Virus record (IMG/VR): IMGVR_UViG_2778261631_000002
Origin: a virus
Lineage: Duplodnaviria > Heunggongvirae > Uroviricota > Caudoviricetes
Strand: one strand, 5' to 3'
DNA length: 64,000 nucleotides
How positions within the stretch are numbered: the first letter of the stretch is position 1; each line of letters starts with the position of its first letter. Made by a program: the position numbers and the translations under genes. The notes under the pieces were generated by a model. It made no database searches. It saw only the letters and a list, made by a program, of their open reading frames with translations, and had not been told where the DNA came from. Shown piece by piece: positions 18,651 to 19,868 of this stretch.

Positions 18651-19868
18651 ATGCCAACTGAATATGCTCGCGACAACCTTGGTCGCTATCAGACTGATGG
18701 ATTAAGTGCAAAAGACTTTAACAAGGTCTTCGATCTTATCCGTAAACAGCAGCGTCAGAATCGGCGAAACGCGCGACGTACACTCACCCCAAGGATTATG
18801 GGGATGCGTAACCGCGAACTTGAGGCATTCCTCAGCCTTGGGAAAAAGAAAGATGGCACCTACTTTACGCCCGAAGATATACGCAGCTTCAACACCTCAA
18901 GGCAGGCTCATAAAACAAAATTCAAGAGCACGGTACCCGGCATTACCTATGCTCAGTTGGTGGCGCAGTCCACCAGCATTGATATAAAACGCGCTAACAA
19001 CAAAGTTTCTGATGGCACAGGGATCAAAGCCGCGACATTCCTCGGGCTAAAACACAACCTTGCATTGATATCTGTTAATGCCTCGGATGAGTCGGTCCAC
19101 CAGCATCACCGTGTCAGAATTCGATTTGAGGAATGGGATAAAGCCGTTGAGGATATTGCTGAAGACGGTGCGAAAAAAGCCCGAATCGCTGCCGATCTCT
19201 GCAAGGGCCGGGTATCTTTCGACTGTGATTGTGGACGCCATCAATACTGGTATCGTTATATGGCCACTGCTGGTAACTATGCTGTCGCGCCGCCAAAAGA
19301 GTATGCCTTCCCCAAGATCCGCAACCCTGATCTGACTGGTGTAGCCTGCAAACATGTGTTGCACGCTATGACGCGTTTTCAGTCTCCCACATGGCACAAG
19401 GCCATCATTATTGCCCTGGAAAAAGCAGCTGAACAGGTAGCCTTCGGCGATGACAAGCGGAAGACAACAACCTATTTCAAAGGCGAACTGGCTAAATCGC
19501 TCGCGCGCAACCGGACAACAACGACGGATCAGGCTAAAGCTGCGCGTGAGTATGAGCTGTATCTGAAATCTCAGGATGCATTAGGCAAAAAACTACGCGC
19601 CAAAGATAGCGCCACGGACAACGTTCGCCGGTTGTTAAAAAAAGCTCGCACCACGGCAAACAGGAAGAATGCCGAACTAAAAGCATCGCGGGTGAGGGAA
19701 GCCCAGGCTCGCGCTGAAGCCGACGCTCTCAAAAAAGCCCTGCAAACGCAGGCGAACAACCTCATAAAGTTTTTCATGAGTCAGGGAATGGACAAGGCCG
19801 CTGCCACCGCGCAGGCGCGAAGCATTCTGGAGACACAAATTAATGAAGCCCGTAAACGGAAAGGATAA
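18651..19868 (+). CDS. Hypothetical protein with SWIM-type zinc finger and basic C-terminal helical tail
   Basis: 405-aa ORF; CDCGRHQYW ... CKHVLH (CxC-x(n)-CxH). Confidence 0.55.
   Translation: MPTEYARDNLGRYQTDGLSAKDFNKVFDLIRKQQRQNRRNARRTLTPRIMGMRNRELEAFLSLGKKKDGTYFTPEDIRSFNTSRQAHKTKFKSTVPGITYAQLVAQSTSIDIKRANNKVSDGTGIKAATFLGLKHNLALISVNASDESVHQHHRVRIRFEEWDKAVEDIAEDGAKKARIAADLCKGRVSFDCDCGRHQYWYRYMATAGNYAVAPPKEYAFPKIRNPDLTGVACKHVLHAMTRFQSPTWHKAIIIALEKAAEQVAFGDDKRKTTTYFKGELAKSLARNRTTTTDQAKAAREYELYLKSQDALGKKLRAKDSATDNVRRLLKKARTTANRKNAELKASRVREAQARAEADALKKALQTQANNLIKFFMSQGMDKAAATAQARSILETQINEARKRKG

Follow-up and report, generated by a model that had tools for sequence, protein, structure and literature searches.

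Zinc fingers of the SWIM type (PF04434) are recognised by the ligand signature CxC-x(n)-CxH, with a spacer that classically comprises about 6-25 residues, and they were first proposed as possible DNA binders. Among the closest known counterparts of the protein described here is this domain, with a solved example in the N-terminal region of human ZSWIM8 (PDB 9rwz chain M). The protein in question is the product of gene 25 (gp25) of phage P1, the second gene of the late operon 26-25-7-24-6-5. The public P1 record labels gene 25 as ‘tail stability’, as it does genes 7 and 24, while gene 26 carries the label ‘baseplate’. In a P1 cryo-EM study the other products of the operon have all been assigned: gp7 forms the hexameric connector stopper, gp24 is the terminator, gp26 plugs the baseplate, and gp6 and gp5 represent the hub and the spike, respectively. 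The same study, in which the tape measure and part of the internal density are not resolved, does not mention gp25; the protein also goes unmentioned in a report from 2023 on the P1 tail and is not part of the tail-baseplate complex described in a 2025 preprint. LC-MS/MS of P1 virions yielded two gp25 peptides (8.4% coverage), and the authors of the proteomics allowed for gp25 being either structural or a cofactor. In 2022, others obtained no HHpred match to gp25 above 50% probability, and gp25 has been likened to the non-structural assembly cofactors of the T4 gp51/gp26 type (Gonzales et al., 2022; PMC9024508). The likeness is by description, as those cofactors, like gp25, are needed in morphogenesis and have not been located in the mature structure. 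However, T4 gp51 and T4 gp26 function at the hub, while members of the gp25 family, as described below, keep company with neck genes.

As to the genetics, both gene 25 and gene 26 were isolated as amber mutants, and gene 25 has been counted as essential on these grounds. Nevertheless, when genes 25 and 26 (positions 18264-19868 in the sequence described below) were targeted by CRISPRi roadblocks, plating fell only about 10-fold, and the essential genes 7, 24, 6 and 5 further along were spared polar effects, which the authors regarded as a double contradiction. Simple consensus scans detected no internal promoter on the plus strand of genes 26-25, which is weak negative evidence.

The window analyzed here is a 64,000-nucleotide stretch of a virus of the Caudoviricetes (IMG/VR record IMGVR_UViG_2778261631_000002). 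Positions 17800-23100 are 99% identical to P1, the window representing a P1-type phage-plasmid, and all the features of the operon described here lie on the plus strand. The open reading frame at 18651..19868 starts with ATG and encodes a protein of 405 amino acids with a net charge of +35, 99.5% identical to P1 gp25. It is preceded by the C1 operator O26 (18175-18191) and the late promoter LP26 (18216-18234), both positioned by transfer from the P1 record, and by gene 26 (18264..18641), encoding the T4 gp53-like baseplate ‘plug’, whose stop is 9 nt upstream of the gene 25 ATG. Gene 7 (19872..20600), encoding the stopper, a hexamer in the head-tail connector, starts only 3 nt past the gene 25 stop, followed by the tail terminator gene 24 (20587..21372) and by genes 6 (hub) and 5 (spike) at 21374..23015, with which the operon ends. 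An earlier note on this sequence had placed gene 25 in an operon upstream of the hub and spike genes, which is correct for gp6 and gp5, but the genes directly downstream are those for the neck stopper and the terminator. Likewise, the proposal of co-expression with baseplate components stands insofar as the operon holds genes 26, 6 and 5, but this framing is incomplete, because the conserved association of the family is with neck/connector and terminator genes. As to gene 24, its longest open reading frame begins with a TTG at 20569, while the start in the P1 record is the GTG at 20587, and both versions overlap the end of gene 7 (20569-20600). A scan of viral contigs for gp25 returned near-identical P1 copies and nothing else.

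Three of the four cysteines of gp25, together with H235, make up the motif C192-D-C194-x38-C233-K-H235 (19224..19355). A CxC-x(6-45)-CxH pattern arises in only 5 of 20,000 composition-preserving shuffles of the protein. An exhaustive profile search recovered 616 clusters (50% identity) at E <= 0.001, mostly of 330-450 amino acids, and 259 of the 267 relatives fetched possess the motif, with spacers of 36-43 residues, the remaining eight being fragments of 93-230 amino acids. Thus, the conservation that the earlier note had wished to see checked extends to every full-length relative fetched (259/259). In an alignment of 62 sequences sharing 22-43% identity with P1 gp25, the sole invariant columns are G97 and, within the motif, C192, C194, E217, P221, N225, G230, C233, K234 and H235. 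Residues 187-245 have a mean identity to P1 of 60%, compared to 16-33% for the rest of gp25. As the pattern is rare in shuffles, is kept in all full-length relatives and falls into the most conserved block of the protein, the motif is real and far above chance.

Pfam does not place gp25 among SWIM proteins directly: the SWIM profile has no match to the whole protein at E <= 0.1 and none to isolated segments at E <= 10. A version of gp25 with an artificially shortened spacer scores 12.9 bits, below the gathering threshold of 19.6 bits, and the 62 family members produce five sub-threshold matches, the best with an E value of 0.015. Searches of Pfam, NCBIfam and PDB sequences with gp25 or the family profile returned nothing usable. 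The predicted structure has strands carrying the CxC half, a helix starting from the CxH half, and a likeness to the solved SWIM domain. Foldseek against viral models returned seven matches at E <= 1e-3, of which the two named for a function are both ‘SWIM-type domain-containing protein’, from Achromobacter phage Motura and Burkholderia phage BcepSauron. The core of the gp25 family can also be aligned by hhalign, over 125 columns and with a probability of 99.4% (E 5.9e-21), with a family of small stand-alone proteins, six of which, found at E 1e-65 to 1e-77, pass the Pfam SWIM cutoff at 24.3-28.9 bits. Given the fold matches and the homology to Pfam-passing SWIM proteins, and despite the lack of a Pfam call, gp25 belongs, judging from sequence comparison and the predicted model, to the SWIM superfamily as one of its divergent members, with C192, C194, C233 and H235 as the putative zinc ligands. 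The SWIM-like motif pointed out in the earlier note is thus borne out by conservation, by fold and by homology. What sets gp25 apart from the classical SWIM proteins is the longer spacer (36-43 residues) with an invariant loop of its own (E...PK[IV]RNP), the addition of a basic N-terminal helix and of a basic C-terminal helical region of about 110 residues, and the position of its gene in a phage virion morphogenesis operon. While gene 25 and the SWIM family had each been described before, the link between them appears to be new, with no report found; a literature search combining SWIM with phage tail returned matches to ‘swimming motility’ only, and no description of a SWIM family of the neck module was found.

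The stand-alone proteins were reached by tblastn from a distant gp25 homolog, which detected small proteins in Bacillus phage HSE3 (gp067, 181 amino acids) and Streptococcus phage GXN1 that possess the architecture of the gp25 core along with its spacer (CTCPDFKYRY...EDRPAKITNP...ACKH). The family amounts to 756 database proteins, examples being those of Bacillus phage vB_BceM-HSE3 (gp067), Bacillus phage SP-15, Listeria phage LIS04, Streptococcus phage GXN1 and the Maribacter phages. Like gp25, they combine a beta-sheet, helices and a zinc finger, with a spacer of 37-38 residues and a PAKITNP loop, but they comprise only 180-290 amino acids, have no counterpart of the long basic coiled coil and are basic in only some cases. 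The first half of their motif, C[ST]CPDFKYR, appears nearer to the SWIM consensus than that of gp25. In all eight contexts inspected (8/8), the gene is located two to four genes downstream of a neck/adaptor gene of the T4 gp13 type, either beside a T4-type portal gene or before open reading frames resembling Neck1/tail-completion and sheath-stabiliser genes, followed by sheath and tube genes, while no gp26-like or LysM-like neighbor, annotated or detectable by Pfam, is present in these contexts. This arrangement matches that in P1, where the stopper and terminator genes come after gene 25, and the common denominator of the superfamily is, as far as can be read from gene content, the neck and tail-completion module. 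Thus gp25 belongs, on the same comparative grounds, to a widespread family of proteins of contractile-tailed phages, whose hallmark is a SWIM domain with a long spacer and whose genes accompany those for the neck and the terminator. As a separate observation, in four metagenomic phage contigs (L172, L174, L175, L177) the gene following the SWIM-like gene carries PF27249 (MJ0330_N). In two of the four it also harbors an intein, in one case with a weak HNH match as well, and a T4-type portal gene comes next.

The domain is surrounded in gp25 by features typical of the P1 supergroup. The AlphaFold secondary structure and the regional charge delineate a basic amphipathic helix at the N-terminus (residues 20-40; 18708..18770). 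The conserved core (residues 66-292; 18846..19526), rich in Arg, Tyr and Trp, is predicted to start with helices (74-115) and a three-stranded antiparallel beta-sheet (125-159; 19023..19127) that lies N-terminal of the zinc finger and aligns with the stand-alone family. Helices (162-185) and a strand ending at C192 follow, then a helix (195-207), the conserved loop and further helices from 234 to 261. The C-terminal basic region (residues 294-404; 19530..19862), whose charge is conserved while its sequence is poorly so, is predicted to consist of an 84-residue helix (294-377) and a second helix (382-404), and is a probable coiled coil, the long helix keeping a single heptad register with a contrast equaled in only 13 of 2000 shuffles. 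Its net charge is +15, and residues 261-405 have a pI of 10.4, in agreement with the long basic helical C-terminus described in the earlier note. The net charge of gp25 family members is always basic (+14 to +45), whereas that of the stand-alone relatives ranges from -11 to +15, so the extreme charge is a trait of the P1-lineage extensions and not of the core. The downstream neighbor is of the opposite charge: gp7 has a net charge of -33, of which -23 falls within residues 1-70 (19872-20081). The open reading frames tightly coupled downstream of gp25 homologs are acidic as well, with a median of -16 (-10 to -51 for gp7 homologs), the pairing of opposite charges being kept across the P1 supergroup.

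The gene contexts within this supergroup were sampled through 80 loci, one genome per species, from Desulfobacterota, Gamma- and Betaproteobacteria and others, and gp25 homologs are always embedded in virion structural modules. A gp26 homolog is present in 69 of these loci, in 65 of them directly upstream and on the same strand, the distance between the two being -8 to +11 nt in most cases, and each of the 21 P1-like phage records with a match to gp26 has gp25 as well. For genes 7, 24, 6 and 5, homologs are found in 40-58 of the 80 loci, following gp25 in that order in the P1-like ones, and those of the capsid (23) and sheath (22) genes are often 5-8 kb or less past the gp25 homologs. In the loci farthest removed from P1, the set that stays together is reduced to gp26, gp25 and an acidic open reading frame of 160-190 amino acids (PHROG 4597), beside fibre or capsid genes. 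These distant acidic proteins are at best putative homologs of gp7, with an hhalign probability of 13% (E 0.002). The module can also be rearranged, as four loci from Desulfosarcina and Desulfatitalea (L087, L088, L091, L100) possess a gp25 homolog without the usual neighbors 26, 7, 24, 6 and 5; in one of these (L087) it adjoins a PmgG-like gene, a helicase-primase gene and an anti-repressor gene.

Based on these data, we propose, with moderate confidence, that gp25 is a zinc-stabilised protein-binding factor in tail completion or head-tail joining, acting transiently or as a low-copy, non-symmetric component. One zinc ion, presumably held by C192, C194, C233 and H235, would fix the 38-residue spacer as a rigid loop, with E217...P221-K222-x-x-N225-P226 as its invariant part, and the surface of this loop would bind a conserved protein partner, the likeliest candidates being the stopper gp7 and the terminator gp24. 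The basic N-terminal helix and the C-terminal coiled coil of the P1 lineage may add oligomerisation, and these basic extensions may hold an acidic partner electrostatically, the N-terminal tail of gp7 being one possibility. Having worked in tail completion or head-tail joining, gp25 would then be released, or a few non-symmetric copies would be kept, and either would account for gp25 missing from symmetrised cryo-EM maps. The assignment to the neck follows from the neck clusters that house the stand-alone homologs, from genes 7 and 24 following gene 25 and sharing its ‘tail stability’ label, from the amber mutants, and from the contrast between the basic gp25 family and the acidic downstream product. 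The transient or low-copy mode follows from the two peptides in virions and from the lack of a placement in the three P1 structural studies. However, the most constant neighbor of gp25 in the P1 supergroup is the baseplate gene 26 and not a neck gene, which counts against the neck assignment. Also weighing against the proposal are the low hhalign probability between gp7 and the distant acidic proteins and the modest loss of plating upon CRISPRi of gene 25. The mass spectrometry signal, weak as it is, is comparable to those of genuine virion proteins present in 3-6 copies, so gp25 may still be structural. According to the earlier note, its reading would fall if the protein proved to be abundant in virions, with an established part in the baseplate and a variable Cys/His spacing; instead, gp25 is represented by two peptides, is absent from the cryo-EM models and has a conserved spacing. 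The chaperone-like role also suggested there continues to be a live option.

Among the alternatives, the one that accommodates the data best, although we consider it unlikely, is that a few copies of gp25 are retained on the axis of the virion, in the connector channel or the tail lumen, where they would be bound to the leading end of the DNA and/or to Sit, the tape measure protein, and would exit together with these at infection. In this view, gp25 would be functionally analogous to the DNA end protector of T4, gp2. Like gp25, T4 gp2 is strongly basic (+29 versus +35), and its gene, in the immediate vicinity of gene 53, is located between the head-closure gene 4 and the terminator gene 3, so that the T4 order of 53 | 4, 2, 3 is comparable to the P1 order of 26 (gp53-like), 25, 7 (stopper), 24 (terminator). 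To our knowledge, T4 gp2 has not been placed in neck structures. The recovery of gp25 peptides from virions and the core rich in Arg, Tyr and Trp would agree with such a role, as would the unusually wide connector channel of P1 (about 40 A) and the unresolved density in the P1 tail cavity and at the baseplate centre, but this density is attributed to Sit by its authors. Moreover, T4 gp2 lacks Cys residues, a SWIM motif and detectable homology to gp25 (hhalign probability of 0.07%, or 0.1% with the core), restricting the likeness to position and function; no nucleic-acid-binding domain was detected in gp25 or in the Pfam scans of the 62 members; and the stand-alone homologs, with their charges of either sign and some acidic tails, indicate that polycation behavior is not a family trait. 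A broader form of this idea, that long-spacer SWIM proteins in general, gp25 included, are axial virion proteins, a few copies of which would lie within the connector channel or the upper part of the tail lumen and be ejected with the DNA, appears doubtful to us. If true, it would make them a zinc-finger counterpart of T4 gp2, holding the DNA end or the C-terminus of the tape measure, and it could help explain how the genome is retained behind the wide channel of P1. As homologs of gp25, T4 gp2 is ruled out by the figures above, and T4 gp3, gp4, gp13, gp14, gp15 and gp53 all score <= 0.2% by hhalign, none possessing the motif.

A second alternative, which we regard as improbable, is that gp25 assists gp26 as a cofactor in baseplate assembly, for instance by inserting the plug formed by gp26 between the hub and the wedges, and is released afterwards. 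This would suit both the close pairing of the two genes (directly adjacent in 65 of the 80 loci, and joined in all 21 records) and the baseplate models that do without gp25. However, the stand-alone homologs are found in neck clusters in which no gp26-like or LysM-like neighbor is detectable, the Desulfosarcina loci carry gp25 without an adjacent gp26, and the public labels of the two genes differ (‘tail stability’ versus ‘baseplate’).

A role as a DNA-binding regulator or nucleoid-associated protein, in line with the DNA-binding activity suggested in the earlier note, is very hard to reconcile with the data. It could draw on the basic character and predicted coiled coil of gp25, on the DNA binding first envisaged for SWIM domains, and on the homolog in Xanthomonas phage Rb1 (L165 6809-7888; PQ569993), whose public label is ‘transcriptional regulator MvaT’. 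The label is echoed in the accompanying paper, a 2026 report on what is apparently the same phage (as GYRb1), in which ORF50, probably the Rb1 gp25 homolog, is assigned to an MvaT/P16 family. However, Pfam scans of P1 gp25 and of the homologs in Rb1 and ABMM1 (the latter two at E <= 1) detected neither H-NS/MvaT nor helix-turn-helix domains, and neither appears among the 25 most-matched Pfam families of the 62 members. The Rb1 homolog matches PHROGs 4315 and 1722 instead, and its label is probably a misannotation. Gene 25 is part of a late structural operon under LP26, its homologs are found only within virion structural modules, the phenotype in the literature is morphogenetic, and the stand-alone homologs are not consistently basic, all arguing against DNA binding. 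Finally, that the Cys/His pattern is coincidental or a non-metal feature of an ordinary helical tail protein, as the missing Pfam match to gp25 itself and a 38-residue spacer far beyond the classical range might suggest, is scarcely credible, as the four residues do not vary even at 22% identity and fall within the most conserved block, are so rarely reproduced by shuffling, belong to a fold whose matches are SWIM proteins, and are part of a core homologous to Pfam-passing SWIM proteins with an equal spacer.

The proposed role in tail completion or head-tail joining moves the focus away from the baseplate, and it concerns the sole product of the 26-25-7-24-6-5 operon left without a location or a mechanism after three recent structural studies of P1, a classic model phage. 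The SWIM assignment offers four targets for point mutations (C192, C194, C233, H235), making an open question of P1 biology testable, and ties gp25 to hundreds of uncharacterised neck-cluster genes in large phages of Firmicutes, Bacteroidota and Proteobacteria. It also corrects the misleading ‘MvaT regulator’ label that is now appearing in phage records.

Two further observations concern the surroundings of gene 25. One is a protein of 1126 amino acids encoded near the gp25 homolog in a Paraburkholderia locus (L147 14582-17962), which matches PHROGs for DarB-like antirestriction, for a minor head protein and for proteins ‘released from the phage upon host infection’, suggesting that P1-style internal head proteins are present in distant relatives. 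The other is the spacing of the structural genes. In many relatives the homolog of capsid gene 23 is found approximately 4.7 kb from the gp25 start, just past gene 5, with homologs of 22, 21 and pmgG a few kb beyond it, whereas in the window genes 5 and 23 are about 15 kb apart (23015-37970), an interval that, according to the P1 record, contains dbn, ban, a tRNA gene, the tci genes and parB. This difference in spacing suggests that the 23015-37970 segment is an insertion in an ancestral structural supermodule.
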